Origin: an uncultured Gammaproteobacteria bacterium
GTDB lineage: Bacteria; Patescibacteriota; Patescibacteriia; 2-01-FULL-39-33
Direction: 5' to 3'
Assembly (NCBI GenBank): GCA_964558935.1
Contig: CAZLFP010000005.1
Location: 20,667 to 84,666, forward strand
Length of the DNA stretch: 64,000 nt
Shown here: piece after piece, positions 1 through 26,350 of the stretch
How positions within the stretch are numbered: the stretch's first letter is position 1
Layout of the letters: each line of letters begins with the position of its first letter
The notes under the pieces: model-generated
Seen by the model: only the letters and a program-made list of their open reading frames with translations
Told to the model about the DNA's origin: nothing
Databases searched by the model: none
Translations under genes and position numbers: made by a program

Positions 1-1039
1 TGCTCTTTTAGCTGGTTTAATTGCTGGTATTGTGATTGGTCTCTCTACCGAGTACTATACTTCAGACAGTCGCAAACCCACACAGAAAGTCGCCCTTGCT
101 TCTCAGACAGGTTGTGCAACCAACATTATATCCGGTTTATCTTTAGGATTTATGTCTACGGTTATCCCGGTAGTAGCTGTCTGTTTGGCGATATATGTCG
201 CTTACTCTTTTGCAGATCTGTATGGTGTAGCTATTGCAGCGGTTGGCATGTTATCTACCTTAGGTATTACCTTGGCGACAGATTCATATGGTCCTGTCGC
301 AGATAATGCTGCTGGCATTGCTGAAATGGCTGGTCTGGGAACCGAGGTTAGGCAAAGAGCTGAAGAGTTGGATGCGGTTGGCAATACCACTGCGGCTGTC
401 GGCAAAGGTTTTGCCATTGGAAGCGCGGCCTTAACAGCTTTGGTTCTTTTAGTCTCTTACGGACAAGCTGTAAACATAGAGTCAGTCAATTTATTTGATT
501 CCACTGTTATCATCGGTTTGTTTATAGGGGGTGTTCTGCCTTTTGTCTTTGCCGCCTTAACCATGCAAGCGGTGGGCAAAGCAGCGTCTCAGATGGTGGA
601 TGAGGTTAGAAGGCAGTTTAAAGAGATTTCGGGACTTATGGAAGGTGAAACCGAACCAGATTACAAAAGATGTATAGATATTTCGACTGGTGCTGCTTTA
701 AGACAAATGATCGCTCCCGGTCTCTTGGCTATTTTTGTACCTATTTTAGTTGGTTATTATATTGGACCCGCTTCTTTAGCCGGTTTGTTGGCCGGCAGTA
801 TTGTGACCGGTTTTCTCTTGGCTATATTTATGGCTAATGCAGGTGGAGCTTGGGATAACGCGAAGAAATATATTGAAGCGGATAATCTGGGTGGTAAAGG
901 CAGTGATGCCCATAAAGCGGCTGTTGTGGGAGACACGGTGGGAGATCCTTTCAAAGACACGGCTGGTCCTGCCTTAAATATTCTTATTAAACTGATGGCG
1001 ATTGTTTCCATTGTGATTGCTCCGCTGTTAATGATGTAA
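1..1039 (+). CDS. hppA: K+/H+-translocating membrane pyrophosphatase, C-terminal part (5' end outside window)
   Basis: Reading frame is open from nt 2. Motifs Gxx[34 protein letters not shown] are typical of V-type H+-PPase, with multiple TM helices. Confidence 0.85.
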
Positions 1040-5304: not shown

Positions 5305-6146
5305 AAGTAGGAGCTCACATTTCAGCGGCTGGAGATTTGTCTTTGGCGCCTCAGCGTGCCAAAGAAGTAGGCTGTGATTGTTTTCAATTTTTTTCTCGTC
5401 CACCTCAGGGTGGTAGAACTAAACCTTTAACCGAAAGGGTTGTTTCCGATTTTAAAAAAAATATGGACAAGTATGGTCAGTCTGAAGCATATATTCATAC
5501 TCCATATTATATTAATTTAGCGTCTGCAGATAACAGAATATTCTATGGCTCTATCTCTGCGATACGAGAAGAATTGGAGCGAGGATCTCAGTTGGGTGTA
5601 AGGTATGTTCTGACTCATTTAGGCAGTGCTAAAGATTTAGGAACTGCTAAAGGTATTAGACAGGTTGTTAAGGGTATAAAAGAAGTTTTAAAAGATTATA
5701 CCGGGAGTACTAAGTTGTTAATTGAAAATTCTGCTGGAGCTGGTGCGATAATTGGAGATACTTTTGAAGAAATTAAGAAGATTGTAGATAGTCCTTCAAT
5801 AAGGAAATACACTCTTGGCATTTGTTTCGATACTGCTCATGCTTTTGCTTCAGGTTATGATTTAAGAGATGATAAAGCGGTTAAAAAAACATTTTCAGAT
5901 TTTAATAAACTAATTGGTATTGATAAGTTAAAATTAATTCATGCTAATGATTCTGCTGTTGAATTAGGTACGCATAAAGATATGCATGCTCATATTGGTA
6001 AGGGTTTAATCGGTAAAAAAGGTTTTGAAGCTATTGCTCAAGTAGCTAAAAAGAATAAGGTTAATTTGATTTTAGAGACTCCGCATAGTTTGGGAGATAA
6101 CAAGGAATTGATTCAGGATATTAATATATTAAAAAAGATGAGATAA
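5301..6146 (+). CDS. nfo: deoxyribonuclease IV (AP endonuclease, Nfo family)
   Basis: MKVGAHIS...; HTPYYINLAS; xylose-isomerase-like TIM barrel signature. ATGA overlap with galE. Confidence 0.85.
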   Translation: MKVGAHISAAGDLSLAPQRAKEVGCDCFQFFSRPPQGGRTKPLTERVVSDFKKNMDKYGQSEAYIHTPYYINLASADNRIFYGSISAIREELERGSQLGVRYVLTHLGSAKDLGTAKGIRQVVKGIKEVLKDYTGSTKLLIENSAGAGAIIGDTFEEIKKIVDSPSIRKYTLGICFDTAHAFASGYDLRDDKAVKKTFSDFNKLIGIDKLKLIHANDSAVELGTHKDMHAHIGKGLIGKKGFEAIAQVAKKNKVNLILETPHSLGDNKELIQDINILKKMR

Positions 6147-6147
6147 T

Positions 6148-6648
6148 ATGAAGATCGCCATAGTCTCAGATTCCCATGACAATATAATAAACATTGAAAA
6201 GTTTTTAACCTGGGCTGAAAAACAAGAAATAGATATTATTATCCATTGTGGAGATATTGCTGCTCCTTCAGTTATCAAAGAACTATTTTCTTCTTTTGGA
6301 GGAGATATACATTTAGTCCATGGCAATGTTTCTGACAGAGAATCTCTGGAAAAGACGTGTTCCGGATTTAAGAATATTACTTTACATGGTGATGAAGGTA
6401 AATTAGAACTGGATGAACGGAAAATAGCTTTTTGTCACTTTCCGGAACAAGCTCAAAAATTGGCGGAAACAGGCGATTATCAGCTGGTTTTTTACGGACA
6501 TACACATAAACCTTGGATGGAGACTTTGGCTAATAAGTCTCAATTAATCAACCCCGGTACTTTAGGCGGTTTGTTTCAGACAGCTACTTTTGCTGTGTAT
6601 GATACACAAAAAGGAACTTTAGTTTTAAAAGAAGTAAGTCGGTTATGA
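6148..6648 (+). CDS. metallophosphoesterase, YfcE/MJ0936 family
   Basis: IAIVSDSHDN...HCGD...GHTH motifs of calcineurin-like phosphoesterases. Confidence 0.75.
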   Translation: MKIAIVSDSHDNIINIEKFLTWAEKQEIDIIIHCGDIAAPSVIKELFSSFGGDIHLVHGNVSDRESLEKTCSGFKNITLHGDEGKLELDERKIAFCHFPEQAQKLAETGDYQLVFYGHTHKPWMETLANKSQLINPGTLGGLFQTATFAVYDTQKGTLVLKEVSRL

Positions 6649-6869
6649 GGCAAATATTGGTTAAAGTTAAACCTAATTCTAAGAACAACAAAGTTGTTCA
6701 TATTAGTGGTAATGTTTACCACGTTGAAGTCACGGCCAGGCCGGAAAAAGGCAAAGCCAATGACATGGTGATTAAGACTTTAGCTAAATATTTTCAAACA
6801 GCTCCCAGTTTAGTTGAGATCAAGGTAGGTAAAACTGCTTCTACTAAACTGGTGATAATCTCTGGATAA
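6645..6869 (+). CDS. DUF167/YggU-family small protein
   Basis: 74-aa protein with a YggU-like pattern (KVKPNSKNNKV...ARPEKGKANDMVIKTLAKYF). ATGA overlap with the upstream gene. Confidence 0.55.
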   Translation: MRQILVKVKPNSKNNKVVHISGNVYHVEVTARPEKGKANDMVIKTLAKYFQTAPSLVEIKVGKTASTKLVIISG

Positions 6870-7011
6870 CCTGGTATTAACCCCCATTTGCCAAGATGGT
6901 AAATATGAGTTATAATGCTCTCGGAATAGATATGAGAAGAGTCATAAATGGAACAAATTCCGCTTAAATTAGCGGAATTTCACTTGATTAAGCCCAGAAA
7001 TATAGACTTTG

Positions 7012-7040
7012 AACCTTGACATTTAATCTATTATTTGCTA
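7012..7040 (+). promoter_or_regulatory. near-consensus sigma70 promoter inside the non-coding island
   Basis: TTGACA (7012-7017), exactly 17-nt spacer, TACAAT (7035-7040). Confidence 0.55.
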
Positions 7041-7050
7041 CAATACTATA

Positions 7051-7437
7051 TTCACCCTAGATGTTTGATGTTTAGAGTTCTGCAGGCACGACAAGCATAG
7101 GAATTATTATGAAGGATTATTTTGGTTTAATTACTCGAATAGTAACTTGATATAATTTCTTTGTCTGCAGTATTGTGAACACTAATCTGTAGGCCACTCA
7201 TTACAACCCAAAATTTGTCACCTTCCATATCAAATTTGAGAAAATTTTTTATCTCTTCTCTTCGCTTGGGTGAACTGATTTGGCTAGGCACGACAAGCAT
7301 GGGAACTTATTTACAGCTTCTCTCGGGCTTTGGCTCGATAGTTGCTTAGACAAGTTTTCTTGCCTGGCCACATCAGTTCATCCGAGTACAATGAGGCCTA
7401 CAGTTTAGTAACCCTCACCTTAACAGGTGGGGGTTTT
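7051..7437 (+). ncRNA. candidate structured RNA / long leader of about 390 nt; identity unknown
   Basis: No ORF of 60 aa or more on either strand across 590 nt. Bounded by the promoter above and a G/U-containing intrinsic terminator cctcacc-ttaaca-ggtgggg followed by gttttt at 7408-7437. Internal 22-nt direct repeat aggcacgacaagcat(a/g)ggaa at about 7084 and about 7283. Confidence 0.3.
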
Positions 7438-7461
7438 TGAATTATAATACACCTGTCAGTC

Positions 7462-8019
7462 ATGATTAGCCGTATGATTAAATTTCCCAAAAAATTCAGG
7501 ACAAAGTCAGGTCATGATTTATTGATCAGAAGAGCAAAGGTTTCAGATGCTGCCAACATGTTGAAGTATATCAAGCAAATGCTAACCGAGAGCAATTATA
7601 TGACCAGCAGTCCTCAAGACGCAGTGAAAACTCTTCAAGAACAGCAGAAGTATATTAAAGAAACAGCCAATTCACAGGGTAATCTGTTTTTGGTGTCTGA
7701 GATAGAAGGTCAACTGGTGGGTATGATCAATTTTAAAAGAGGAGGTAAAGAAAGAACCAAGCATAGCGGTGAATTTGGTATTTCAGTTTTAAAAGACTAT
7801 TGGGGAGAGGGTATTGGTAATTTGTTGTTGGACTGCTTGCTAAATTACGCTCAGCATCAGAAAGGCATTAAGAAGATTAATCTTAGAGTTAGATCAGACA
7901 ATAATAGAGCCATAGGTTTGTATATCAAGAAAGGTTTCAAAAAAGAGGGTTTACTAACCAAAGAATTAAAAGTGAATAATAGATATTACGATCTGCTTTG
8001 GATGGGATTGCAAATGTAA
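7462..8019 (+). CDS. GNAT-family N-acetyltransferase
   Basis: Acetyl-CoA-binding motif region (QLVGMINF...WGEGIGNLLL) and RimI-like fold pattern. Confidence 0.7.
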   Translation: MISRMIKFPKKFRTKSGHDLLIRRAKVSDAANMLKYIKQMLTESNYMTSSPQDAVKTLQEQQKYIKETANSQGNLFLVSEIEGQLVGMINFKRGGKERTKHSGEFGISVLKDYWGEGIGNLLLDCLLNYAQHQKGIKKINLRVRSDNNRAIGLYIKKGFKKEGLLTKELKVNNRYYDLLWMGLQM

Positions 8020-8068: not shown

Positions 8069-9973
8069 TTATTCTATAATTTCTTGAGTTGAACTGGCTG
8101 TTTTTTCAGATAATTCTGCCACTCCGATTAAACACACTTCTTGCCAGGGTCGATAATTGGTGGTAAAAGTTTGTTTTTTTTCTGTGCCGTCCGTCAGGGT
8201 AACCAAATAATCAAATGAAGCTGAAACGCCGTGGTGAGCTGCTTCCGTACATTTTTTTTCATCGACGGGTAAATCCAAAGTTTCAATATACTTAGTAGGC
8301 GGCGGAGCAGTCCAGCCCCAAGTCACCGGCTTAGTTCGGCTGGCAAGTCTGCCATCTGAAGTTCCCCAGAAATCAAAATACAGATTGTAGCCATCGATTC
8401 GGTATTGGATTAAAACATAGTGACCGGTGTCATTTAAGAATCTGACATCCGGCTTGGGAATATAAATGGTAGCATCAGTGCCGGGTAGTCCATCTTCCAG
8501 GTAATATGAGACACTGTAGCCATGACCTCGTCTCTCGGTGATGGGCAGACCGGAAGCCATGGCTGCTCTAAAAAGAGTGGTGCCAATCTGGCATAATCCT
8601 CCGCCATATTCCGGTTTGGTCTCATTGCCCTTAATTACCAGTTCTGGCAGATAACCGCCACTAGCGTCAACGGGGATTAGTTTTTCAACCAGAGAGAAAT
8701 CTTCACCCGGTTCAACCAATACGCCTTGCAGTTTGTTGGCCCCTGTTTTTATATTATGAATACGGTTATATGAACTGCCCCAAAAATTAGAATGGCCGGT
8801 GCCAATAATTTCTTTAATGCCTAAATCATTGATTTCTTCTGTTAAGATGTCTGGGTACAAAGTCTCAACCACAACCTGAGTGGTTAAGTGTTGTTTGGCT
8901 AGATTATTGTTCATAGCCATATAGGTTGCCCTGACATCAACGGCCAGGCCTGTTTGGTGAACTTCAAACTCGGTAACTTTACCGTTGTGCATAATTAAAC
9001 TGGCATCTTGGGGAGCTTGATTGATGTCAAGTATAGTAGCCTCAGCCCAGGCTGTAAATGAGGCCTCATTCATACCCACAAAGATTTCAGCTGTGTCTTG
9101 CTTTTGGAATTCCAACATCTTGGCCAAGTCGGTTGTGTTTATTTCCCAAGTTTGATCCTGATAGATAAGTTTAGGGGAGCTGGTATTAAGCAGCCAATTA
9201 ACCAAATCCAGTTTGTCTTGTACCTGGTTTTGAGTTATTTCTGGTTGACTAATCGTCTGAGAAAGCTTAACCGGGGATGAATCCAGATTCTGCAATCTGT
9301 TTTTAACGGCTTCAATGGCTTGGTGGTAGTTAATGATATGGCCGGTTGTAGCGGGTTCCAGTTCTACGGTAAATTCTTCTGCCTGCCAGGTAATTTTGGG
9401 TCTGGCATTGTGACCATCTTGTTCCAAGTGTTTGAATTGTTTAACCAACAATTCTTTGAGGTAAGCTTCATTTAAGTCATAGTGGTTGGTAAAAGAGTGG
9501 TTAGACAGTAAGATATCCCATTGCTTGGGTATATTTTGCCACAAACTGCCTTCCCGACCATAACTGTAGGCTTGGTAAATCGTTTCGTAAATGTCAAAAG
9601 TGTACAGTTCACGAGATAGATCCGGATCTTCCAAACCACTGACGACCGGAGTTAGAGTCAAATAGTTATCTGGATCATATTGCACTTTAACCCCTTGTTC
9701 TTTAAAAGCTTGAGTGGTTTGTTCCATCAGTTCAATGGCTTGGGAAATGGTCAAACCTTCCAAACTTAAATTGCCCAACCGACTGCCTGGATAGAATTTG
9801 TCGTGGTATTTGATTTCAAACAGAATGATTATGGAAGCTAAAAAAGCCAGAATGACTAAAACAGCGACTAAGATAGTTATCATTAGCCACTGTAGATGGT
9901 TGATCTTGGGTTGATTTGGTTGTCTCAGACATTTAATTGCTGCAACCAAACGCTGGAATTTATCCTTGATCAT
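8069..9973 (-). CDS. VanW-domain protein with N-terminal membrane anchor
   Basis: N-terminal TM segment; VanW-like core (GGYLPELVIKGN...GGGLCQIGTTLFRAA...GHGYSVSYY). Confidence 0.65.
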   Translation of the reverse strand: MIKDKFQRLVAAIKCLRQPNQPKINHLQWLMITILVAVLVILAFLASIIILFEIKYHDKFYPGSRLGNLSLEGLTISQAIELMEQTTQAFKEQGVKVQYDPDNYLTLTPVVSGLEDPDLSRELYTFDIYETIYQAYSYGREGSLWQNIPKQWDILLSNHSFTNHYDLNEAYLKELLVKQFKHLEQDGHNARPKITWQAEEFTVELEPATTGHIINYHQAIEAVKNRLQNLDSSPVKLSQTISQPEITQNQVQDKLDLVNWLLNTSSPKLIYQDQTWEINTTDLAKMLEFQKQDTAEIFVGMNEASFTAWAEATILDINQAPQDASLIMHNGKVTEFEVHQTGLAVDVRATYMAMNNNLAKQHLTTQVVVETLYPDILTEEINDLGIKEIIGTGHSNFWGSSYNRIHNIKTGANKLQGVLVEPGEDFSLVEKLIPVDASGGYLPELVIKGNETKPEYGGGLCQIGTTLFRAAMASGLPITERRGHGYSVSYYLEDGLPGTDATIYIPKPDVRFLNDTGHYVLIQYRIDGYNLYFDFWGTSDGRLASRTKPVTWGWTAPPPTKYIETLDLPVDEKKCTEAAHHGVSASFDYLVTLTDGTEKKQTFTTNYRPWQEVCLIGVAELSEKTASSTQEIIE

Positions 9974-10178
9974 CAGTTTTGAGTATTTGATTCAACATGG
10001 CTTTGGCGGTTGCTTGGGTGTCCTTTTCTGGAGATAGCATTAACCAAACAGAACTGCCAACAGTATATTTGGGATCAAAATCTTGAGCTGGCCAGTTGAG
10101 AGTTTGATTATCTGCTGTTTTAATGACAACCTGATTATTACTGATTCGCTCAATTTTAGCCGGTATGCTTCTAGTCAT
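9960..10178 (-). CDS. hypothetical small protein
   Basis: 72-aa ORF sandwiched between hsp20 and the VanW gene, overlapping both by a few codons. Confidence 0.35.
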   Translation of the reverse strand: MTRSIPAKIERISNNQVVIKTADNQTLNWPAQDFDPKYTVGSSVWLMLSPEKDTQATAKAMLNQILKTDDQG

Positions 10179-10623
10179 CTAATCTGGTTACTTTAATGCT
10201 GGTAGTCTTGTATTTCTTAGGCAGGGTGATGGTTAAAATGCCATTCTTGAGACTGGCCTCAATTTGAGTTTGGTTAATTTCTTGAGGCAGGACAATGGAA
10301 CGGGAAAAAACACCCCAATAGATCTCTCTGGCAAAATAGTCTTCGTCCATAATTTCCTGTTTATCATCTCGAATACCCCGAATGGTGAGCAAGTCTCCAT
10401 TGATGGAGATATCTAAATCTTCCGGTTCGACTCCCGCCATGGCGGTTTTGATGTAGATATTATCCTTGTCTTGGTAGACATCACATGACAACTGTCCTTC
10501 TTCGGCTAAAAAGGTGGGTTCGTAATCTGCTTGTTCATCATTGTAAAAAGCCAAAAAATCAGCTGCTTTTTGGTCTGTCTTAATCGGTACGTTTTTACCT
10601 GATGATTTTTTGTTAGCGGGCAT
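10171..10623 (-). CDS. Hsp20/alpha-crystallin small heat-shock protein
   Basis: Alpha-crystallin domain with conserved ...GILTITLPKK... C-terminal region and ...LDISINGDLLTIRG.... Confidence 0.85.
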   Translation of the reverse strand: MPANKKSSGKNVPIKTDQKAADFLAFYNDEQADYEPTFLAEEGQLSCDVYQDKDNIYIKTAMAGVEPEDLDISINGDLLTIRGIRDDKQEIMDEDYFAREIYWGVFSRSIVLPQEINQTQIEASLKNGILTITLPKKYKTTSIKVTRLDD

Positions 10624-15243: not shown

Positions 15244-18200
15244 ATGTTTTTAAAACGCCTTTTTCCCGTGCAAAGGTCGTTAAAAACTACCAAAAAAGTA
15301 ATGGCAGTTTGTCTTTTGGTGGTTTTTTTGTTTCTTACCCTGGGCTTGCCAGTGGTTTTAGCGCAAGGTACACCCGGTGATCCGTATGGCTTGCAAGCGA
15401 TTGAGGAAGACACGGTTTTTGCCCCGACTAATTTAATCGTCATTATTGCCAACTTAATTCGAATCTTCCTGGGTTTGTTGGGCATGATTGCGGTGTTGTT
15501 AATGCTGTACGCCGGTTATCTGTGGATGACGGCTGCCGGCAATCCCGAACAGGTTCAGAAAGCTCAGAGAATTATTAAGCAAACGACAGTTGGTATTATC
15601 ATTATCTTATCTGCTTTTGCAATTGTCACTTTTGTCTTGGGTATTTTTGGGGGCGGTACCACCACACCGGGAGAGAGGCCGATTCCCACTCCTCGGCCAC
15701 CTCTAACCCCTTGGGGTATTGGCAAGGGACCGATTGAGGATGTTTATCCTCGACCCGGACAAGATGATGTACCGATTAATACGGCGATTGTAGTCACGTT
15801 TAAGGATGCGATAAATGCAACTACCATTTGTAATGTCACGGGAGATAGTAGTTGTGACGGTGAAATAATGAAGAATGTTGAAATTTGCATGTTAGATGAG
15901 AATAATCAATGTGTGGATTCTGTTCATCCGGAAAATCAGTTTCAGGCTACAAATTTTGCAAATACAACAGTGACACAAACGGGTGACGGACGAACTTTCG
16001 TCTTTAACGTAGCTGCCGGTGGTAAGTATTTGGGTGTGGAAGACGGACGTGAGCGACCTTTCCAGGTAACGCTTAAAAATGGCATTCAAAACACGGCCGG
16101 TGAGGATATTTTCAGCGGTTTAGCCGGCAACCAGTTCGCCTGGAATTTTGAAACCAACGGTAATTTGGATTTGGATCCCCCGGAAATAGTGGCTTTTGAT
16201 CTGTATCCCGGTTTAGATACTGCACAAGATATTTATACAGAAGCCTCTCCCGCCACCAGAGCTCAGACCACTTTAGCTTTTTCTGGGGCACCGCAGGCCA
16301 ACCAAGCCGCCAAAGTGAATGGCGTGCCGTATACGAGTAGTAATTTTAGTCAAACTTTAACTCAAACAACACAGATACCGGGTGCGACTGTTTATTTTAG
16401 AAGTAATGCCGGTTTTAGCATTAACACGGGTGGTACAGATACGGTGACAGTAACGGTGACGGCCGGTAGTGCGACTAACCCTGAGACAGGCATTGCTGAG
16501 CAAGTCGAAATTTCTGTAGCTGGTAGCTTTTTAACGTTAAATGTTAGTAGTAATCGGGTGGTCTTGTCTGAAGGCAATAGTATTTTTTCCGGTGCCTACT
16601 TGGAAGGAAATTTTCAAGCTGGCGGAAGCTGGACTTTTCAGGCCACTCCGGCTGTTCAGGGAGACAGGATAACCATAGATAACGAAGATCGCTTTATTTT
16701 TGTGGAAGCGACTGAAAATCGGTCCAGTCTTCAAATCAATGATCAATCTTACGTGACTGTCAAAGCTACAGACACTGCTGGCAATCCCAGATATTTGGGG
16801 AATTTGGCTGCAGCTATTGCTAATCAAACCAGATTAGCAACTCGTGTAGATGGCAGTAGTGTGGTTGTAACCGCTCCGAATACTGGAGCAGGTGAGATTA
16901 GCGTTAGTCATGATGTTGTAGGTTTAACAGTAACGCCAACTCCAGGCACTGAGCGAGTGATTAACCAGCGAACTGTTGGACAACGAGATTTGCCTAGAAA
17001 CCATTTCTTTCAGATTAATTTCAATGAACCGGTTAACCCTGTATTTTTAGATGGAAACATTATAGTTACCATCAATGGAACTCCAGTTAGTGATGTTAGA
17101 TTGGAGTATTCCAATAATTACAAAACAATTGAAGTCTTACCTCCAGAGACAAACAAATGCGGCGTCAGCAACTGTGGTCGAGATATCTATTGCTGGATTT
17201 TAAGTCCACAACAAGATGCTTACCCGGCTTCAGTGGAAATCAAAGCAGCGGTTTTACAAACCCAAGCAGTTCTCGATGCAAATAATTTATGTTCAGATTG
17301 GGGAGGTTCGGTTGATACTTATGGCAGATGCTCGCGTAAGGTGGATTTGGAGTGTGCTGCCGATTGTGAAATGATCTACTATCCATTAGCCTCCTACACC
17401 GCTCCAGACGGTGTGGTGGACTTGGCTTTTAATTCATTTAACGGCAGTTTCAATACTTATGAGGATTATGATTTGGCTAAGACGGTTGGTATTGCCGAGG
17501 GTCAGTCTTGTGATAATTGCGTGGAAAACAGTAATGATGGAAAATCTGGTCGGAATGCTTATATGTTAAAATACAACCCCAACTACACTCCGTTGACTAA
17601 TAATATGAAAAATGAAAGCGGAGGGAGCGCTTATTACGGAGACAATTTCCAGTGGTCATTTTATATTTCTTCATTACTGGATAAGGAAGCCCCACTGATT
17701 ACTTCTGTGACTCCGTTATTGGGCGGAGAAAGCGATTTTAGAGATGAACCCATTGCTATTAATTTTAACAAAGTTATGCGCAGCCGGACCTTAAGACCTG
17801 GCTGGGATAAAGACACTGAACATCGGTATTTGGTGGTCGAAACGGTTTCAGCCGGTGCCCAATCTTTGGGCTATTGGATTAGTAAGTATAATCTGGATAC
17901 GGATGCGGATGATTTGGCGGATGAGACGCGGGTGGAAATTGAACATACTCCTTATGCAGTGGCTACAGAATATGCCAGTTTAGCCGGGTCTGGTTTGGAG
18001 TCCATTGGTCAGAATTGTTTTAAGCCGGGAGCCGGTCCCAAAGATACCAGTAATAATTGCCAATATAATCCTAGCGGTGGTTTATATCAGGGTTGTGTGG
18101 CGGTGAATGAAAGTAATCCGTCCTCCTATGGCCATTGGAATTGCGCTGATGTGGCTGGCTTGGTGGAAGGTGTTGAAATATGTGCAGCCAATGAAATCTG

Positions 18201-18354
18201 CGAACCGTTTGATGAAACTGGAGATGGTAGCTATGGTGGTAGCTGGATTATTACTTTAGATGCAGGGTGGAGAACAACTAATACCACCTGTAGTGATGAT
18301 ACTGACAGCTGCCAGGGCTGTTGCTTTGGTCGATGTGTGGCCAGTGGATCATAA
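15244..18354 (+). CDS. giant secreted Cys-rich surface protein (1036 aa) with N-terminal VirB2/TrbC-pilin-like membrane hairpin
   Basis: Signal peptide, then two hydrophobic helices flanking a YAGYLWMTAAGNPEQVQKAQ loop (aa about 60-135). Long Thr/Asn/Gly-rich extracellular region ending in the Cys cluster CSDDTDSCQGCCFGRC. Confidence 0.7.
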   Translation: MFLKRLFPVQRSLKTTKKVMAVCLLVVFLFLTLGLPVVLAQGTPGDPYGLQAIEEDTVFAPTNLIVIIANLIRIFLGLLGMIAVLLMLYAGYLWMTAAGNPEQVQKAQRIIKQTTVGIIIILSAFAIVTFVLGIFGGGTTTPGERPIPTPRPPLTPWGIGKGPIEDVYPRPGQDDVPINTAIVVTFKDAINATTICNVTGDSSCDGEIMKNVEICMLDENNQCVDSVHPENQFQATNFANTTVTQTGDGRTFVFNVAAGGKYLGVEDGRERPFQVTLKNGIQNTAGEDIFSGLAGNQFAWNFETNGNLDLDPPEIVAFDLYPGLDTAQDIYTEASPATRAQTTLAFSGAPQANQAAKVNGVPYTSSNFSQTLTQTTQIPGATVYFRSNAGFSINTGGTDTVTVTVTAGSATNPETGIAEQVEISVAGSFLTLNVSSNRVVLSEGNSIFSGAYLEGNFQAGGSWTFQATPAVQGDRITIDNEDRFIFVEATENRSSLQINDQSYVTVKATDTAGNPRYLGNLAAAIANQTRLATRVDGSSVVVTAPNTGAGEISVSHDVVGLTVTPTPGTERVINQRTVGQRDLPRNHFFQINFNEPVNPVFLDGNIIVTINGTPVSDVRLEYSNNYKTIEVLPPETNKCGVSNCGRDIYCWILSPQQDAYPASVEIKAAVLQTQAVLDANNLCSDWGGSVDTYGRCSRKVDLECAADCEMIYYPLASYTAPDGVVDLAFNSFNGSFNTYEDYDLAKTVGIAEGQSCDNCVENSNDGKSGRNAYMLKYNPNYTPLTNNMKNESGGSAYYGDNFQWSFYISSLLDKEAPLITSVTPLLGGESDFRDEPIAINFNKVMRSRTLRPGWDKDTEHRYLVVETVSAGAQSLGYWISKYNLDTDADDLADETRVEIEHTPYAVATEYASLAGSGLESIGQNCFKPGAGPKDTSNNCQYNPSGGLYQGCVAVNESNPSSYGHWNCADVAGLVEGVEICAANEICEPFDETGDGSYGGSWIITLDAGWRTTNTTCSDDTDSCQGCCFGRCVASGS

Positions 18355-18385: not shown

Positions 18386-21300
18386 ATGAAGAGAAGAGGT
18401 GTTAACAATTTATGGAGGCCAATATTTGCCTTGGCAATTATTGGTGTGTTGTTATTCAGCTTGCCTGTTTTGGCCGAAGGAGGTGACGTTGATCCATATG
18501 GTTTAGGTCAAATTGAACAGCAAACGGTTTTTACAGACACCGGCCTGCTTGAGATCATTGCCATGTTGATTAATATCTTCATGGGTTTGTTGGGCATGAT
18601 TGCTGTCATTTTAATGATTTATGCCGGTTATTTATGGATGACGGCCGGGGGTAATCCCGAAAAGGTGGAAAAAGCCAGGATGATTATCCAAAGAGCTGTA
18701 ATTGGCTTAATTATTATTTTTTCGGCTTGGGCGATCGTGACTTTTGTCTTCTATTCCTTGGGCGTGGCAGTCGGTGATGGTGGCAGACAGTCTTGTAATG
18801 AGGAAAATCCTTGTCCGCCCGGTTACCAATGTGTTGATGGCAGATGCAACAGAATACCGGATTACAATTTTAGAACCAGAGAAGGTGAGTTAACTTATAT
18901 TTCCGGTGTGCGATCTCAATCTTTAGACTGGTCCAGATCAACCAGTCGTTATACTAGTTTGGTGCCTGTGCCGCCAACAGCTGATTTCCAGGTCAGAGGC
19001 TATGCTTTTAAACGTAATGAGATAATTGCGCTATTAGCTTTATATGGTGGTTTAGATGAACAGTCTTTAAATAACTTGGGTACTTATCCCATTACCATTT
19101 CTGAAACTCCCAGTACAGAAGTAGAAGAGTGGAGGGGCGTGGATTTGTCTGCTGTGCCAGTTGGTGAAAGCATCTATGTCAAGAATAGGGCTAATTCGCT
19201 TAATCCGGTAAGTGATTTACAGAGTTCTTTTGAATCTGATCTTTTAACTTTACGTGTGATAAATCAGCATTGTTTCAATGGTGTTTTAGATGGTGATGAA
19301 ACAGAAATCGATTGTGGTGGCAGCTGCGGAGCCTGTGCAGGTCAGAGTTGTCGCACTTTAGAGGATGATACTTGCAGTGATGCTAATTGCCGGTCAGGAG
19401 TGTGTGGACCGGATTGTGTTTGTGTAACTGAACCAACCATTGTTTTGGTCGTAGAGGATGACGGCGCTCCCGGTAATTACATTACCATCTATGGTCATCA
19501 TTTTGGTCATGAACAGGGTCAAGTTCATTTTTATACTACCGACGGAACTCTGTCAGCTACAGTAAATTGGACTGCTTTCCCGGACGAGTGTTCAAATACA
19601 TGGCAAACCGGTCATATCATTGCTGTTGTGCCGGCTTTATCTGCAGGTAATTACCAAATAGTGGTTGAGACCAGTGATGGTTTACTGAGTGAGGGTTATG
19701 CATTCGAAGTTAATACGGTTAACAGACCGGGTGTATGTACTATTCAAAACACCACTCTATCTCAACCCGGACAGTTGGTTTACGGTTTTGGTCAATCTGA
19801 AAATGAAGTTAAACTGATTGGCAACCAGTATCCGACCACCGTTGATGGTAATAATGAAGTACAGTGGTTATACCAAACATATAGTCAACAAACAGGTGGG
19901 TATGTAGATGATATCTACAACAGCCCAAGTAATACCTGGTCAACGGTTAATGAAGCCTTCGATGTAGTACCGGTTGGTCAGGATGGTCGGACAGCAGTTA
20001 GGGTATCTTTGGAACCAACCAAAAACAGTAATCCATATCCGTTCTTAATCTCTGCGGGTGGAGTTGGTGATCCATGTGGTGATCCTGAAGAACAGGTCTG
20101 TGCAGCAGCTGAAGTCTGTCAGCCTGGCTTGGTGTGCGATTTTGAGGATTGCACTTGTCAATTGGGTGAAGCTGAAACTTGCGGTAATGGACAAATTGAT
20201 CAAGGTGAGCAGTGCGATAGCTCAGCTGAAGCGATCTACAGTCAATTAGATGATGATAACAATCCGGATTGTTCTTTGTATGGAGATTATTTACCGGGTA
20301 GAAATGTTACCTGTCAGCCAAATTGTACAGTTAATGTCAATCCTTGTTTGCTAGCGTCTTTAGCCGGTAAGCCGTCTCAACACAATATTTATTCCTGGGC
20401 CTTTTTGAATATGTCTGGAACAGATATACCAAGGCCTGGTTTGTGCGGTAACAATATTTTAGATGATGGTGAAGATTGTGAAGATGTGGATGGCAGTCTT
20501 ACGTATCGAGGGGACAGAAGCACATGTCAGGCTTACGGCTTTAACAGTGGTACTTTGGCTTGTTCCAATTGTCAGTTAGACACTCAGAATTGTGAAGGAG
20601 CTTCCATTGGAGATAAGGCTTCTTCCCATGCCATTTACGGTTGGATTATCGGACACACGGGAGATTATAATCCAGGTGAGGAAGAGCCAACAATAGTTGA
20701 AGATTGTACTAGAGAAAGAACCTGCCGACCAGGCGCCAGATTGCCCAGTCCCACCCCTTGGAGTGAAGGCTGGACGTCAGCCACCAATATCAATGTTGAA
20801 AATCCACTGGCCTGTTTAGATGCCATTATTCTAGCTCGCTTTAGTTTGCCCATGGATGTGGATACCATTAATCCGGACAATATTAAAGTGTTAAAGAGAT
20901 TAGCGACTGGTGGTTGGCAAGAAGTTGCAGGTGATGTCGTTGCGGATTTGGATAGTGATAAGATGATTATCGGTAGTGATAACAGTGATATGGATAATGA
21001 TTATTTCAGATTCATTCCTACCACTAATTTAGAGCCTAATGCTTGGTACAAGGTGGTGGTCAGACAAACCGTTGAAAGTTTATCTGGCAGACAGATGAGA
21101 TTAAACCGAGTTGACCAAGCCAGAGTGAATGATCGCGAGTGTAATGTAAATGGCATTACAGATGCGGCTTACTGTTGGAATTTTCAAACTCGTAGTGCCG
21201 GGACATGTAATCCGGGCTGTGTGGAATGTTCACCGGATCCGCATACTATGTATTGGCAAGGTGCTACCACCAAGTATTTAGCTGATGTTGATAGTCAAGA

Positions 21301-24300
21301 TAATGTGTGTCTGTTGCTTAAAACCGGTAATACTGATTGGAATTGGTCTACAGATGATGAACCGACTGATGTTAAAGTTAGTTTGGGTTCGACCAATAAT
21401 TTTTATAACACAGGTACGGCCATTGATGAAAACATTTTTGACTCACCCGGCTATACCAAAATTATTACCCAATTGCGATCTTATACAGGCAAGGAAGATT
21501 TCTGCAGGGCTAGGGTGGATTTCACCAATCCGGTGGTGGTTGAAGATTCTTCCTGTTTGTATGGTAATATCCAAAGTCCTAGTCCTTGGATTAGTTCTGA
21601 TGATGCTTGCTTAAACGCTATGGTGTCAGCGCGTTTTAGTCGGGATATGACTGATGAGACTTTGAATTCTGGGAATATTTTAGTCTACCAATGTTCTGAT
21701 TTTGATTGTGATCTTACCGGCTTAACACCTATGACATACGGCCAAGTTGAAATTTTTCAATATTCTCATGTCTTGGATGACGTGACTGCCCAGCAGATTA
21801 TTGATCTTGGAGAACCGGAAGATGACGAGTTGCCTGAAGGTTTTTATATTCAACCTATAACCGGAGGCAATCCGGACGGCAACTTCAGATTTACACCCAA
21901 TACCTGGTACCGGGTGGTGATTAAAGGAGATACCGAAGGTGTCAGAGGTTCAACCGGCGGTAAGCTATTGAGAACCAATTACGCTCATGATGCTGACGGG
22001 GAAGTAAATGATTACACTTGGAAGTTTAAAACAGCCGGCAATGATTGCCAAGTAGACAGAGTGACAGTTACACCTCAGAAAAGGAGTATGTCAGCTGCTG
22101 GACAGAACCAGATTTACCATGCTTTGTCAGTGGCAGCCAATTGTAATTTGTTGAATTCAGCTTCTTTTAGCTGGGCTTGGAGATCTTTATATGAATTGGA
22201 TGATGACCGAGATGCGAATGATCCTGATTATGGCAATGCCAGTGATGTGGCTAGAGTTTGTCCTTACAACTCCAACGCTTTATGTGATTATACAGCTCTG
22301 ACTTCTGAGCAGAGCAGTTGGTTGACTCGGTCTAAAGTTCGAGTCTTCGGTATAGTTGACAGTGATGTTTATATTAAAGCACGAGCACTGGAGACCGGTC
22401 CTCAGTCAGCAGTTGCCGGCTACAATCCATTGGATCCGGAGATGGGTGATAAGTGGGATTACGGTACTTTGAGAATTGGTTACAGCGATCTTAAGGTCAT
22501 CGGTCATTCACCGGACAGGTTGACTTGCAAGATTCCAACTGCTGGAAATTATTCGGATTATGATATTCGAGTCAGATTTAACATTGACGTTGATACCGGT
22601 TCAATTAAACCCGGTGTTAATACTTTCTTGTATCAATGCGATCCAGAAAATAACGACTGTCATCCGGGGACTGAGCTTCAAACAGTTGATTTAACTCGTC
22701 TTAACACTACTTTGTATGCCAAAGAAATTGTCTTAAATCCTAACCAACAATTATCGCCTTACACCAGCAATACATATCGTTTGTTAATTCAAGGCGGTCC
22801 TAACACAGATCGTCCAATCGCTTTCAATGGCAAACGTCTCATGACTTTCAATTACAACAGTGCCGGCGGAGGTGCCGGTGAAGAGTGTGAACCTGATATT
22901 TTACCCTGGTCAGATTTTAGTGGTGTTTGCAATAATTGTATGTTAGACAGTAGTAAAAATTTATGCACTTATGCCAATGGCAGTTTTGCTGAGTGTCAGA
23001 ATAGTCTGCCCAATTCGTCTTTAGATTATTGTAATGATAAATGTTTTAACACCGGTAATGAGAATCGAGCTGCTTGTGGTGATGATTATGTCAATGTCGG
23101 TTATGAACAATGCGATGATGGCAACATTATTTCCGGTGATGGTTGCAGTAATGTTTGTTTATGGGAAGGAGCCGGTTCAGTAGCTGGCTCGGTCTGTGGT
23201 AATGGTGAACAAGAAGAGGGAGAAGCTTGTGATGATGGAGATCTGGATAATATTAATGAGTGTAACAATAATTGCTTGTTGACTGAAACTCCGGAACCGG
23301 GCTCTTTGCCGTACAGGCAGTGTCGTATTGAAGATAACTTTACAGTCTCACTGGGCGCTAATATTACTCCTCCCGACATTGGCGTGGCTCAACCGTTTGC
23401 TGGCACACCGCTCGACGATTACCGCAGTTATTATGTCAACAGTTCATTGTTTGGTAATAATAGGCATACTCCCTGGGGAGCTAAAATAATTGGCGGCCAG
23501 GTCATGATCGAGGCTCAAGGCAATGAAGGCAGTTCCGCCTTAATGACGGAAACTGAGGTTGACAGTGACCATTATCTTGTTAAAACCCAGATAATCGCCA
23601 ATGGTGCAATCACCAGTACAGATGATATTGGTTTGGCTTTTGGTTACCAAGATGAAAATAATTTTTGGTTGTTGAATTGGGCTGATGTTGGTTATCCTGG
23701 AGACAGAGCAGACACTTACCGCAGATTTAGATTAATCAACCAGTTTGGCCAAGTTGCAATTACTGCCACACCTTTCAATGTTGATGCACCTAATCATAAC
23801 TTTACTCTGTCGGTTGAAGTAATTAATTTTAGCGATGGAGCTCTTATCAAATGCTTTCGAGACAATACTCTACTGTTTAGTCATGAGGTTGACAGACGAG
23901 TGACCGGTCAGGTCGGGTTGTATGCCAGAGATCCGGATACTTCAGTCTTCTTTAATTTCTTAGATATCATTAATTTGGACTCGCAGTCCAACGACTGGTG
24001 TAATACTTTTGTCCAAACCCCAATTTGTGGCAATGGCACGGTTGAAACCGGCGAGGATTGTGATGACGGCAATACGGATTCCGGAGATGGCTGTAGCAGT
24101 AGATGCTTGCATGAGGGTTCTGTGAATGCCGTGTGTGGAGATGGCTTGGTTCAAACCGGCCAGGATGACAGTTATTCCTGGGTCTTTATCGTCGATAATA
24201 CGGAAGAAGCATGCGCTAGTGTTGAACCGGAAATTGTGATGGGACCATGTCCGAATGCTATTTGGAGAATTAAGACTAAGTTAGTTGATGAAAATGGCGT

Positions 24301-26350
24301 TTCAACCGGCATTGAGAGTTTGAATGTTAAAATTGAAGCTTCCAATCTGACTGTTACACACCAAGGTTGGTGGCCTAAGTTTAAGAATTGGTTTTGGGGT
24401 TTGTTTGGTCAATCCGCCGTGGCAGTCGATTATCCAAATCCTTTATTTGACTACACTTTTACTGCCACAGAATTAAGTGGTGATCTGCGCCAAACGCCTT
24501 CCATTTCTGGCAGCAGCGACGAGATATTGGGTTATCGTCAACAGGAAGAAGACGGTAATGTGTACTATGTGTTAAACATTATTCCGGGTCAGAATTGGAC
24601 CATAGATCGTCATTACCGTATTACCACCACAGATCAGGCTGACAATCAAACAGCAGTCGAAACTTATATTGAACCGGATATTTGTTTAATAGATGATCTG
24701 GAAGTCAATGTTTGGCCTAAAGGTCAGCTGGCTTTAGAAGATACATTTTTCTGCGCCGAAGCTTCGGGTTGTGATAGAGATCAGGATACTGCGACACCGG
24801 GTAACCAGCATATTTACCGAATTTGGGCCACCAATGGTAGACTGGGAGACAGAAAATCTTTCCTAAGATCTACTTCAACTTGGGAATTGAGTGTGATTCC
24901 TGATCTAGCTAATGTTTTAACTCGGCAAGATGCGAGTGCCACGACTTACCAAGGCGATCACTGGATTACGGCACAGGGTAGAACAGGAGGGCGAGCTTCC
25001 TTAAGAGTGACTGCCGGCAATCCTCAAACCAATGATGATGATTACACTCAGTCCATATATTTATTAGTCTTCCTATGTGACAATCCTTGGCCAGATCCAG
25101 ATAATTTCCCTTTCATTGACAGTGATAATAACTGTACCGGAGGTGACTGCGTTAACACCAATTTTTCCTTAGGCTATTGCCGTGATGCCGGCGAGCCTGG
25201 TTTTGCCGATGATCTGCCCAGATTGGATGAAAATGTCAGAGTTGTGGGTATGAATCCTGATTTAAATATTGTTAAGCAGATGTTCTTCCAAAAAATGGAT
25301 GATTCAGTTAATCCAGCAGTTGCCACTGGGGATACCATTGGCCTGAGAGTAATTAACAACAATAATTACTATAATCCAAGAACCTGGTTTGTCTCTCAGT
25401 TCAACCAAGATCCGGGTGCCATGTCGACCATAGATGGTTACCAATCCGTTGCTCAAGGTCCGACCAGCTATATTCACGCTGCAGATTTGGTGAATAATTG
25501 GAATACTGAAAAAAAGGCATACAGCACTAATTATGTTTTAACTTATACTCAGACCGGGGATGAAGACATTGTTAATATCTATAACCAGATGTTGAATAAT
25601 TTATTTTTCAATTACGGTATTCCAGAACAAGGTGGCTTGCCCACCATGGGTAGTTGTAAAGGCACTAGCTTTGCTTGTTGGTCTGATGCTGATTGCGACA
25701 GTCTGGGTCCCAACGCCTATTGTACTTCAGATAAAGCCAAGTTAACTCGAGATTTAAGAAGATTGGCAGATATGCAGGATATTGATTTAAGCTTGATGCA
25801 GTATAAGTCAGTTGAGCGTTGTTCCGGTTTGCCAACCAGATTGTGCGATAACCAAGATGATTGTGAGGGTTATGGTATGTGCGGCAATTTCTATCCATTG
25901 TTGCCCTCCGGCACTTATGTTCCAGCCAGAAGTATTTCAGTTTGGCCATCGTGGCAGGCAACTTTGGGTAATGCGCTGGGCAGGGCTTTGCCGGTTGACC
26001 CGATTAACCAATTCAGTGGCTGCAGTAGTCCGTATGAGGCGCAAACTTGTTGGGCTGAAAGTCTGAAGTCTTTTAATTGTTCAGCTGTTGCAACAGCTCT
26101 TGCTAATCAGTCAACCTATAATTACATTTATTTGTCTTCCAGACCGGATGAGACCACCTTGTCTAATGTTAGGTATTTATTGGCCAATAATGAGTTCTAT
26201 CCGAATTACAATACTTTGTGGCAGTCATTACCTCTAAACTTACGCAACTATACTGATATAGTGACTCATACTTTATTTACAGATTATGGTGCTTTCTTTA
26301 TTGATGACATCAATGGTACCTTTAACTGTGCCCGCGATTTAAGTTTATAA
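18386..26350 (+). CDS. giant secreted surface protein (2654 aa): pilin-like hairpin, at least 6 Myxococcus-type Cys-rich repeats, LamG/ConA-like domain
   Basis: N-terminal domain paralogous to the preceding gene (about 60% identity over about 100 aa). Repeats of form CGNGxxxxGExCDDGNxxxGDGCSxxC at several sites. LamG-like segment (DHYLVKTQI...FWLLNWADVGYPGDR...). Confidence 0.75.
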   Translation: MKRRGVNNLWRPIFALAIIGVLLFSLPVLAEGGDVDPYGLGQIEQQTVFTDTGLLEIIAMLINIFMGLLGMIAVILMIYAGYLWMTAGGNPEKVEKARMIIQRAVIGLIIIFSAWAIVTFVFYSLGVAVGDGGRQSCNEENPCPPGYQCVDGRCNRIPDYNFRTREGELTYISGVRSQSLDWSRSTSRYTSLVPVPPTADFQVRGYAFKRNEIIALLALYGGLDEQSLNNLGTYPITISETPSTEVEEWRGVDLSAVPVGESIYVKNRANSLNPVSDLQSSFESDLLTLRVINQHCFNGVLDGDETEIDCGGSCGACAGQSCRTLEDDTCSDANCRSGVCGPDCVCVTEPTIVLVVEDDGAPGNYITIYGHHFGHEQGQVHFYTTDGTLSATVNWTAFPDECSNTWQTGHIIAVVPALSAGNYQIVVETSDGLLSEGYAFEVNTVNRPGVCTIQNTTLSQPGQLVYGFGQSENEVKLIGNQYPTTVDGNNEVQWLYQTYSQQTGGYVDDIYNSPSNTWSTVNEAFDVVPVGQDGRTAVRVSLEPTKNSNPYPFLISAGGVGDPCGDPEEQVCAAAEVCQPGLVCDFEDCTCQLGEAETCGNGQIDQGEQCDSSAEAIYSQLDDDNNPDCSLYGDYLPGRNVTCQPNCTVNVNPCLLASLAGKPSQHNIYSWAFLNMSGTDIPRPGLCGNNILDDGEDCEDVDGSLTYRGDRSTCQAYGFNSGTLACSNCQLDTQNCEGASIGDKASSHAIYGWIIGHTGDYNPGEEEPTIVEDCTRERTCRPGARLPSPTPWSEGWTSATNINVENPLACLDAIILARFSLPMDVDTINPDNIKVLKRLATGGWQEVAGDVVADLDSDKMIIGSDNSDMDNDYFRFIPTTNLEPNAWYKVVVRQTVESLSGRQMRLNRVDQARVNDRECNVNGITDAAYCWNFQTRSAGTCNPGCVECSPDPHTMYWQGATTKYLADVDSQDNVCLLLKTGNTDWNWSTDDEPTDVKVSLGSTNNFYNTGTAIDENIFDSPGYTKIITQLRSYTGKEDFCRARVDFTNPVVVEDSSCLYGNIQSPSPWISSDDACLNAMVSARFSRDMTDETLNSGNILVYQCSDFDCDLTGLTPMTYGQVEIFQYSHVLDDVTAQQIIDLGEPEDDELPEGFYIQPITGGNPDGNFRFTPNTWYRVVIKGDTEGVRGSTGGKLLRTNYAHDADGEVNDYTWKFKTAGNDCQVDRVTVTPQKRSMSAAGQNQIYHALSVAANCNLLNSASFSWAWRSLYELDDDRDANDPDYGNASDVARVCPYNSNALCDYTALTSEQSSWLTRSKVRVFGIVDSDVYIKARALETGPQSAVAGYNPLDPEMGDKWDYGTLRIGYSDLKVIGHSPDRLTCKIPTAGNYSDYDIRVRFNIDVDTGSIKPGVNTFLYQCDPENNDCHPGTELQTVDLTRLNTTLYAKEIVLNPNQQLSPYTSNTYRLLIQGGPNTDRPIAFNGKRLMTFNYNSAGGGAGEECEPDILPWSDFSGVCNNCMLDSSKNLCTYANGSFAECQNSLPNSSLDYCNDKCFNTGNENRAACGDDYVNVGYEQCDDGNIISGDGCSNVCLWEGAGSVAGSVCGNGEQEEGEACDDGDLDNINECNNNCLLTETPEPGSLPYRQCRIEDNFTVSLGANITPPDIGVAQPFAGTPLDDYRSYYVNSSLFGNNRHTPWGAKIIGGQVMIEAQGNEGSSALMTETEVDSDHYLVKTQIIANGAITSTDDIGLAFGYQDENNFWLLNWADVGYPGDRADTYRRFRLINQFGQVAITATPFNVDAPNHNFTLSVEVINFSDGALIKCFRDNTLLFSHEVDRRVTGQVGLYARDPDTSVFFNFLDIINLDSQSNDWCNTFVQTPICGNGTVETGEDCDDGNTDSGDGCSSRCLHEGSVNAVCGDGLVQTGQDDSYSWVFIVDNTEEACASVEPEIVMGPCPNAIWRIKTKLVDENGVSTGIESLNVKIEASNLTVTHQGWWPKFKNWFWGLFGQSAVAVDYPNPLFDYTFTATELSGDLRQTPSISGSSDEILGYRQQEEDGNVYYVLNIIPGQNWTIDRHYRITTTDQADNQTAVETYIEPDICLIDDLEVNVWPKGQLALEDTFFCAEASGCDRDQDTATPGNQHIYRIWATNGRLGDRKSFLRSTSTWELSVIPDLANVLTRQDASATTYQGDHWITAQGRTGGRASLRVTAGNPQTNDDDYTQSIYLLVFLCDNPWPDPDNFPFIDSDNNCTGGDCVNTNFSLGYCRDAGEPGFADDLPRLDENVRVVGMNPDLNIVKQMFFQKMDDSVNPAVATGDTIGLRVINNNNYYNPRTWFVSQFNQDPGAMSTIDGYQSVAQGPTSYIHAADLVNNWNTEKKAYSTNYVLTYTQTGDEDIVNIYNQMLNNLFFNYGIPEQGGLPTMGSCKGTSFACWSDADCDSLGPNAYCTSDKAKLTRDLRRLADMQDIDLSLMQYKSVERCSGLPTRLCDNQDDCEGYGMCGNFYPLLPSGTYVPARSISVWPSWQATLGNALGRALPVDPINQFSGCSSPYEAQTCWAESLKSFNCSAVATALANQSTYNYIYLSSRPDETTLSNVRYLLANNEFYPNYNTLWQSLPLNLRNYTDIVTHTLFTDYGAFFIDDINGTFNCARDLSL

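Follow-up and report, generated by a model that had tools for sequence, protein, structure and literature searches.

What occupies a gap of 590 nucleotides (nt) in a genome whose neighbouring genes overlap by 1–4 nt? The gap lies at positions 6870–7461 of the 64-kb stretch of DNA analysed here (hereafter the window), between a DUF167 gene (6645–6869) and a GNAT acetyltransferase gene (7462–8019). A first-pass annotation reported that it holds no open reading frame (ORF) of 60 amino acids (aa) or more on either strand, and the ORF list agrees, the longest ORF being one of 57 aa on the minus strand. The same annotation proposed a candidate structured RNA, probably novel, with a promoter, an internal repeat and a terminator of its own. 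This proposal is borne out by more than 100 homologous loci, covariation, conserved transcription signals and the lack of any Rfam match, and we are almost certain that positions 7051–7442 of the plus strand constitute a genuine structured non-coding RNA (ncRNA) gene of a new family. From the sequences compared, we regard the gene, its family, its fold, its strand and its action in trans, instead of on a downstream gene, as established.

The gene is delimited by the following signals:

7016–7044, plus strand: main promoter, TTGACA-17-TACAAT with a TG extension (11/12 matches)
7051–7442, plus strand: predicted primary transcript of ~390 nt, its 5' end deduced from the –10 element and its 3' end from the U-tract
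7410–7440, plus strand: intrinsic terminator, with a stem of 11 pairs (6 G-C) at 7410–7435 followed by the U-tract TTTTG

The sigma70 promoter had initially been placed at 7012–7040 and the terminator stem at 7408–7437; both elements exist, and the terminator indeed ends 25 nt before the GNAT start codon (ATG at 7462), but their positions are those given above. We infer the transcript from these signals and from homologs. An equivalent, equally spaced promoter (TTGnnn-16..18-TAnnnT) was found in 54 of 57 homologs with two copies of the module described below (two-module homologs), at a median distance of 43.5 nt from the –10 element to the GGCAC of module 1. The terminator was equally placed in 49 of the 57 under a strict test.

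The internal repeat, AGGCACGACAAGCAT(A/G)GGAA, is present twice, at 7084–7103 and 7286–7305, the copies being identical at 19 of 20 positions and spaced by 202 nt; it is thus a 20-nt element, not one of 22 nt as first described, and its second copy does not lie at about 7283. No match of this kind arose in 100 shuffles, even with 3 mismatches. The CTGCAG...CTGCAG noticed around the first copy is also there, the two hexamers being opposite strands of its basal helix. Folding the putative transcript (7051–7442), as the first-pass annotation had suggested, yielded a structure far more stable than expected by chance on the plus strand (–146.3 kcal/mol, z = –10.5), and better than that of the reverse complement (–111.3 kcal/mol, z = –5.7). 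Both repeat copies occupy a like context in the minimum-energy fold, with AGGCA paired, CGACAAGCAU forming a one-sided bulge, and RGGAA paired with UUUCU.

The fold is backed by compensatory changes among homologous regions, the covariation analysis proposed in the first pass being carried out here with RNAalifold and with shuffle and slide controls. In an alignment of 40 non-identical, full-length two-copy homologs (57–85% identical to the window), the RNAalifold consensus comprised 101 pairs, 57 of which showed at least one compensatory change. Standard pairs occupied 93.9% of cells vs 84.3% in shuffles, none of the 500 shuffles reaching the observed value, and the cells altered on both sides numbered 477 vs 167 in shuffles. 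When the 3' partners were slid by 1–3 columns, only 36–54% of cells remained paired. The elements of the consensus fold are:

7064–7186, plus strand: domain 1, a long hairpin containing module 1, in which 7064–7088 pairs with 7162–7186, among other pairings, with many compensatory changes
7187–7202, plus strand: 5' strand of a long-range helix, pairing with 7395–7410 and enclosing domain 2
7218–7227, plus strand: invariant single-stranded linker block UCACCUUCCA, with invariant columns in the 40-homolog alignment and unpaired in the consensus fold
7235–7255, plus strand: conserved linker block UUUGAGAAAAUUUUUUAUCUC, with a 4-bp hairpin (7238–7241 with 7252–7255; helix 6)
7265–7386, plus strand: module 2 hairpin (inverted repeat I1), with 24 + 7 + 12 pairs, many of them compensatory
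7395–7410, plus strand: 3' strand of the long-range helix (inverted repeat I3)

The long-range helix (helix 5) carries changes on both sides in all 14 of its pairs.

Two observations concern sub-lineages of the RNA. An insertion of ~180 nt resembling a miniature inverted-repeat transposable element (MITE), with ~15-nt terminal inverted repeats (GGTCTGTCACTTAAT...ATTAAGCGACAGACC), occurs in locus L004 (~6690–6870, minus strand) and in L017, L069 and L092. It sits in the linker between the UCACCUUCCA and UUGAGAAAA blocks, indicating that the linker tolerates large insertions; the related copy in L092 lies just downstream of the RNA. In another sub-lineage (L007, L008, L010, L017, L019, L030, L063 and L068), the 5' strand of the domain-1 basal helix contains (A/G)TATCCACA, a 9-mer like a DnaA box, with the complement of TATCCACA on the opposite strand of the helix. 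The resemblance is probably coincidental, as the 9-mer is not in the window and the domain-1 basal helix covaries in other lineages.

The 20-nt repeat is the invariant core of a rod-shaped hairpin module of ~105 nt, two of which are present in the window RNA:

7084–7103, plus strand: module 1 core; AGGCA paired, CGACAAGCAU a 10-nt one-sided bulge (7089–7098), AGGAA paired with UUUCU (7156–7161)
7286–7305, plus strand: module 2 core; AGGCA paired, CGACAAGCAU bulged (7291–7300), GGGAA paired with UUUUC (7355–7359), with tandem G.U pairs

We built a covariance model from 92 diverse aligned modules. The structure was supplied by hand, since RNAalifold mis-set helices P2 and P3 on this alignment because modules 1 and 2 are one register apart. 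Searched against the whole window, the model recovered exactly two modules, at 7273–7378 (96.6 bits, E = 2e-24) and 7071–7179 (78.2 bits, E = 2e-19). Across the homologous loci it gave 150 sense-strand matches of 64–104 bits, vs at most 31 bits on the antisense strand.

The 140 distinct modules, in which 87% of cells were paired vs 68.5% in shuffles, define what the family keeps and what it changes. The 10-nt bulge CGACAAGCAU does not vary at all, nor do the G-C, C-G and A-U pairs directly below it, one A-U pair in the helix above, and an apical G.U followed by G-C, which lies ~35 nt beyond on either strand. Above the bulge, two G.U pairs are nearly invariant, being replaced now and then by G-C, and covariation is free in the basal helix and over most of the apical one. 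The family core can thus be written as a GGCA/UGCC helix, the one-sided bulge and a GGGAA/UUUCU helix with tandem G.U pairs, the invariant part amounting to 29 nt. Both window modules show the combination that marks membership, namely GGCA|CGACAAGCAU|GGG opposite UCUUGYC, the apical G.U and G-C, and a covarying basal helix. Module length is very uniform (103–114 nt including 14-nt flanks). The apical loops are variable (UUCG, CUCG, UACG, UCCG, UUUUAG, and up to 80 nt in L163). The 80-nt case is an apical-loop insertion in a one-module homolog at 5912–6095 (minus strand) of L163/L164, in which the core and the apical G.U/G-C are retained.

How did the RNA come to have two modules? Sister lineages carry a single module, and the Buchananbacteria-like lineage of the window has, judging from the sequence comparison, undergone an ancient tandem duplication. 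Orthologous modules are 74–77% identical between RNAs, vs 55.5% for the two modules within one RNA, in which the core is kept. The repeat is therefore neither a recent duplication nor a decaying remnant, and the pattern suggests that the core has been under selection in both copies. One further locus, L133, has two adjacent modules (2386–2493 and 2558–2666; 80.5 and 51.4 bits); lying next to an upstream RuvB gene and being otherwise of the one-module type, this pair looks like an independent duplication.

The exact 19-mer GGCACGACAAGCATRGGAA was found in 90 stretches of metagenome contigs and at 67 places in species-representative genomes. A few of these matches, in GC-rich coding DNA of Streptomyces, Rhizobium and Acidobacteria, are due to chance. 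The other hosts are Patescibacteria, also known as the candidate phyla radiation (CPR): Candidatus Buchananbacteria, Kerfeldbacteria, Falkowbacteria and Veblenbacteria, the "Parcubacteria group", and metagenome-assembled genomes (MAGs). Buchananbacteria and Kerfeldbacteria, the two lineages looked up, are separate candidate phyla of the Parcubacteria group according to NCBI, and the nearest relatives of the window among the genome matches are Buchananbacteria. As far as sampled, the family appears to be confined to Patescibacteria of the Parcubacteria group; the scans of these collections needed the exact 19-mer, so that the breadth observed is a lower bound. The RNA is single-copy, with one locus per contig and conserved synteny. 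About half of the loci carry two copies 192–423 nt apart, nearly always ...CATAGGAA followed by ...CATGGGAA. Many loci with a single match (L012, L013, L034, L026, L089, L113, L115 and others) encode a shorter RNA of ~105–130 nt, with its own TTGACA promoter and one long hairpin with the same core; in the shortest forms the basal helix together with a U-run constitutes the terminator.

Some host labels deserve comment. Many MAGs named "uncultured Gammaproteobacteria bacterium" (L093, L094, L098, L104, L106, L107 and others) carry the RNA. Their label looks like a placeholder or an error, as the RNA lies there in a typical CPR neighbourhood, with DUF167 or RuvB upstream and VanW-DUF3006-Hsp20 downstream. 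One record labelled "Saccharimonadales" (L114) has a locus of the Falkowbacteria type.

Is the family really new? It is absent from Rfam 15, and we found no description of it in the full-text literature searched (CPR ncRNA topics and the bulge sequence), a library outside of which further papers may exist. At the gathering threshold no Rfam family was detected in the whole window, a search of the gap and two one-module homologs (L034 and L012) at E ≤ 10 gave only chance-level matches, and nothing was found at the RNA in 20 homolog loci. ARAGORN detected no transfer RNA (tRNA) or transfer-messenger RNA (tmRNA) in the window. The earlier statement that the element matches neither tmRNA, RNase P RNA, signal recognition particle (SRP) RNA, 6S RNA nor riboswitches, for which an Rfam scan had been proposed as the check, therefore holds. 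The 19-mer had no match in viral contigs. BLAST gave none either when phages and plasmids were queried with the RNA, or when E. coli genomes, with their ribosomal RNA (rRNA), were queried with the core. The core (CGACAAG...GGGAA) and the linker UCACCUUCC are loosely like part of the 16S rRNA 3' minor domain (CGUAACAAGG...GGGGAAC...GAUCACCUCC), which may hint at mimicry; as said, the core matched nothing in E. coli. Other resemblances considered (5S rRNA helix I, the S15 G.U/G-C motif, G3.U70 of tRNA-Ala and the H/ACA pocket) were dropped, being partial, of the wrong topology or not conserved.

In being a lineage-restricted, strongly conserved, stand-alone orphan ncRNA gene with a complex covarying fold, the RNA resembles OLE, raiA/ModT, ROOL and GOLLD. 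Nevertheless, it has no sequence or model similarity to them, its hosts are Patescibacteria, and it is built from a modular, repeated rod of ~105 nt.

What, then, would such an RNA do? The bulge and the pairs clamping it are invariant, as is the second G.U/G-C step, and the remainder covaries; the conservation thus argues for a specific recognition surface instead of a generic helix or a plain seed. Each module may serve to dock a specific partner, the likeliest being a protein that would read the bulge and its clamping pairs. Like 4.5S/SRP, 6S or Y RNAs, the RNA would then be an abundant ribonucleoprotein (RNP) scaffold or sequestering RNA, two partners being carried by the tandem form. As a whole, the best explanation of the locus is a two-module RNA gene of a new family whose modules may serve as docking platforms, to which we assign a probability of roughly 0.5. 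The protein-docking mechanism by itself, as suggested by the pattern of conservation, falls somewhat short of even odds. A bolder proposal, which we hold tentatively, takes the ~105-nt module for the RNA component of a new RNP (or for a new ribozyme or sensor) that belongs to the core biology of many Patescibacteria, a large block of the group. It would then be a lineage-specific counterpart of SRP or of the complex of 6S RNA with RNA polymerase, with the 29-nt core as its recognition or active site and the tandem form as a natural dimer.

Several points weigh against the docking-platform explanation. No partner protein was found for the modules, and no gene for an RNA-binding protein is consistently adjacent, DUF167 being upstream in the two-module lineage only. 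The distance from bulge to tip is not fixed, given the 80-nt apical insertion in L163. A metal or ligand pocket, a catalytic core, or a seed for an invariant RNA would likewise be compatible with an invariant bulge that tandem G.U pairs clamp. Transcription is predicted from the promoter, the terminator and the homologs, and a scan for an exact word under-samples both the phylogenetic breadth and the variability of the core.

Patescibacteria make up a large share of bacterial diversity and have tiny genomes, most of them being uncultured. To our knowledge, almost no ncRNAs specific to them have been described. The RNA is very likely important to the cell, since it is kept as a single copy in reduced genomes, a 19-nt stretch has remained unchanged across several candidate phyla, and dozens of compensatory changes have accumulated. 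The 105-nt module with its 29-nt invariant core is a defined object for biochemistry and cryo-electron microscopy, and its protein partner, if existing, could define a new RNP. The new covariance model can serve annotators in regions that at present carry either no annotation or spurious small ORFs. Even if its function were modest, the RNA would show cleanly how a module of a structured RNA has been duplicated in nature.

One alternative, which we judge to be rather unlikely, is a trans-acting base-pairing RNA. Its seeds for ribosome-binding sites of messenger RNAs (mRNAs), or for an invariant stable RNA, would then be the bulge CGACAAGCAU and, where two modules are present, also the anti-Shine-Dalgarno-like UCACCUUCCA. 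Both blocks are invariant and single-stranded in the consensus fold, and C/U-rich seeds pairing with ribosome-binding sites are an established part of small RNA (sRNA) biology. Nevertheless, ATGCTTGTCG, the complement, is enriched neither in the window (3 occurrences vs 2.9 expected, two of them in the gene itself) nor in 1.1 Mb of related loci (~4 vs 2 expected). The pairs around the bulge are invariant instead of covarying, a feature that a simple seed could do without, and the UCACCUUCCA block is present in two-module RNAs only, being missing from the one-module RNAs.

It is improbable, in our estimate, that the RNA is 6S-like, that is, a rod whose unpaired stretch mimics an open promoter and sequesters the RNA polymerase holoenzyme. 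Like 6S RNA, it is rod-shaped, stand-alone and trans-acting, has a strong promoter, and presents an unpaired region between long interrupted helices. The segment enclosed by the bulge (~75–80 nt) has a length similar to that of the internal stem in the 6S RNA of E. coli, and the A/U- and G.U-rich helix beside the bulge could melt. However, 6S RNA has a two-stranded central bubble in a rod of ~180 nt, and the unpaired region here is one-sided, with 10 nt opposite 0–1 nt. 6S RNAs are conserved in shape and not in a 19-nt sequence, no 6S family was matched even at E ≤ 10, and we know of no 6S precedent for two modules in one RNA.

An RNA that senses a ligand, an ion or temperature, or a ribozyme, has an equally low standing with us. 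The bulge and tandem G.U pairs would then make up a pocket or an active site, with cooperative action in the tandem form. As in aptamers and small ribozymes, conservation is centred on an internal loop and specific flanking pairs; homologous domains stand in tandem, and the locus is conserved beside an Hsp20 operon. Tandem riboswitches (e.g. that for glycine) and CsrB/RsmZ sponges likewise unite homologous units in one transcript, suggesting two equivalent binding events. Unlike those riboswitches, however, the RNA is followed by no conserved same-strand gene and lacks an alternative expression platform; a terminator of its own closes it, and a convergent gene usually comes next. CsrB/RsmZ differ in having many units instead of two, and the GGA motifs here lie inside helices, not in hairpin loops. 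In contrast to most self-cleaving ribozymes, the gene is single-copy and syntenic.

A highly divergent version of a universal RNA, i.e., SRP (4.5S) RNA, RNase P RNA or tmRNA, is very improbable. The one-module RNA appears closest in shape and presumed logic to 4.5S RNA: both are stand-alone hairpins of ~105–130 nt from a single-copy gene with a strong promoter, conservation is centred on an asymmetric internal loop and its flanking pairs, and the rod would present a protein-docking loop. It is not a member of the 4.5S family, since it lacks the apical GNRA tetraloop (the apical loops vary) and the symmetric AGG/AGCA loop, and matches no SRP model of Rfam. No domain-IV pattern, with its symmetric and asymmetric loops, was found inside the RNA. 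Moreover, the conserved loop is near the base instead of the tip, and the family occurs in some CPR lineages only, SRP being universal. In size, the two-module form is comparable to RNase P RNA or tmRNA. However, no Rfam model of either was matched, even at E ≤ 10. Of RNase P RNA, which is marked by universal regions and a P1–P4 core, the GAGGAAAGUCC motif of P4 is absent, and the one-module homologs measure only ~105–130 nt. For tmRNA, which is marked by a tRNA-like CCA acceptor domain and a tag frame, ARAGORN was negative, and the RNA ends in a terminator instead of a tRNA-like 3' end. Regular expressions for SRP domain IV, RNase P CR-I and tRNA-like 3' ends, run over the 1.1 Mb of loci, matched nothing in or near the RNA.

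The two other suggestions of the first-pass annotation fare worst. A tandem-aptamer riboswitch controlling the GNAT gene would agree with the two homologous domains and with a terminator ending 25 nt before the start codon, but we give it hardly any credence, as GNAT follows the RNA in this genome only (elsewhere the next gene is usually the convergent VanW), has a promoter-like site of its own at 7420–7448, and has no equivalent in the one-module homologs, which end at a convergent gene. Neither GNAT nor any other same-strand gene is conserved downstream, and the RNA is therefore not the regulator of a conserved downstream gene. Just as little can be said for the gap being no RNA gene at all but a small protein-coding gene (a decayed duplicate or another one), a repeat array, a mobile element, or only a bidirectional terminator or other 3' element of the VanW operon. 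The 57-aa minus-strand ORF, the two direct repeats and a VanW stop codon abutting the terminator in most loci would fit. However, no ORF is conserved, those of the homologs varying in strand, position and size, so that they share no translation product; the core is identical in the two copies, against 55% identity for the rest; and the locus is single-copy and syntenic without a phage or plasmid match, its dedicated promoter is conserved, and the invariant G.U pairs and the 64–104 vs ≤31 bits place the structure on the plus strand, opposite VanW.

Some specific systems were tried and set aside as well. CRISPR, TIGR, type III antitoxin and omega or bridge RNAs were rejected, there being only two copies, 202 nt apart, inside covarying helices. 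A guide-RNA/effector locus (Cas, Tas, ToxN, TnpB, IscB or IS110) was rejected on the neighbours, which are nfo, a phosphoesterase, DUF167, GNAT, VanW, DUF3006 and Hsp20. A MITE or insertion-sequence (IS) mobile element was rejected on the single locus per contig, the synteny and the lack of a phage or plasmid match.

The genomic neighbourhood differs upstream between the two types of RNA and is common to them downstream. In two-module loci the genes upstream are, as in the window, an nfo-like apurinic/apyrimidinic endonuclease, a calcineurin-like phosphoesterase and DUF167, all on the strand of the RNA; in the one-module lineages they are a divergent RuvB, RNase J and others. Downstream of both types (L160–L165 and most others) lies a convergent Hsp20-DUF3006-VanW(+PG_binding_4) operon, located in the window as follows:

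8069–10623, minus strand: convergent Hsp20-DUF3006-VanW operon, the GNAT gene being inserted between the RNA and VanW

The next gene is the convergent VanW in 39 loci, its stop codon lying at a median of 179 nt past the start of the last core, right against the RNA terminator. Since the inspected terminators have A-runs and U-runs on their sides, they are probably bidirectional, serving both the RNA and the VanW units; such a shared terminator could alone be enough to keep the pair together. In four further independent VanW loci, picked by distant VanW homology (40–42% identity), a module was present at this position in 4 of 4. Their cores have slightly different flanks (AGUCACGACAAGCAUGGGAU and GGCACGACAAGCAUGGGGAU), so that the exact 19-mer search underestimates the breadth of the family.

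The cluster of neighbours around the GNAT gene is unique to this genome. The closest GNAT homolog is 48% identical and lies elsewhere, so that GNAT homologs were of no use for synteny, and exact look-ups of the GNAT and DUF167 proteins returned only two short identical Logan contigs. The promoter-like site before GNAT (TTAACA-17-TATAAT, 11/12 matches; 7420–7448) overlaps the RNA terminator; a start from it would fall ~6–8 nt before the GNAT ATG, giving a nearly leaderless mRNA without a Shine-Dalgarno sequence.

Two further elements precede the main promoter:

6888–6916, plus strand: second promoter-like element, TTGCCA-17-TATAAT, just past the DUF167 stop codon
6955–6980, plus strand: perfect hairpin or palindrome of 10 bp with a loop of 6 nt, between the two promoters and ~40 nt past the upstream one

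In 51 of 59 two-module loci the upstream promoter-like element is kept, lying ~114 nt ahead of the main promoter; 49 of the 51 have a perfect TATAAT. The two promoters could represent a tandem P1/P2 arrangement by analogy with stable-RNA operons. A perfect hairpin had been reported in this region as one of 9 bp at 6947–6973; the hairpin is real, its length and position being those listed. A related GCTAAAwTTAGC hairpin with a T-run occupies the same place in at least 40 of the 59 homologs. From its sequence and position, the hairpin could be the terminator of a ~60-nt upstream transcript (a separate sRNA) or of the DUF167 operon, or else a protein-binding or operator palindrome. Elsewhere in the window, two very large ORFs were noticed at 15244–18354 (1036 aa) and 18386–26350 (2654 aa).

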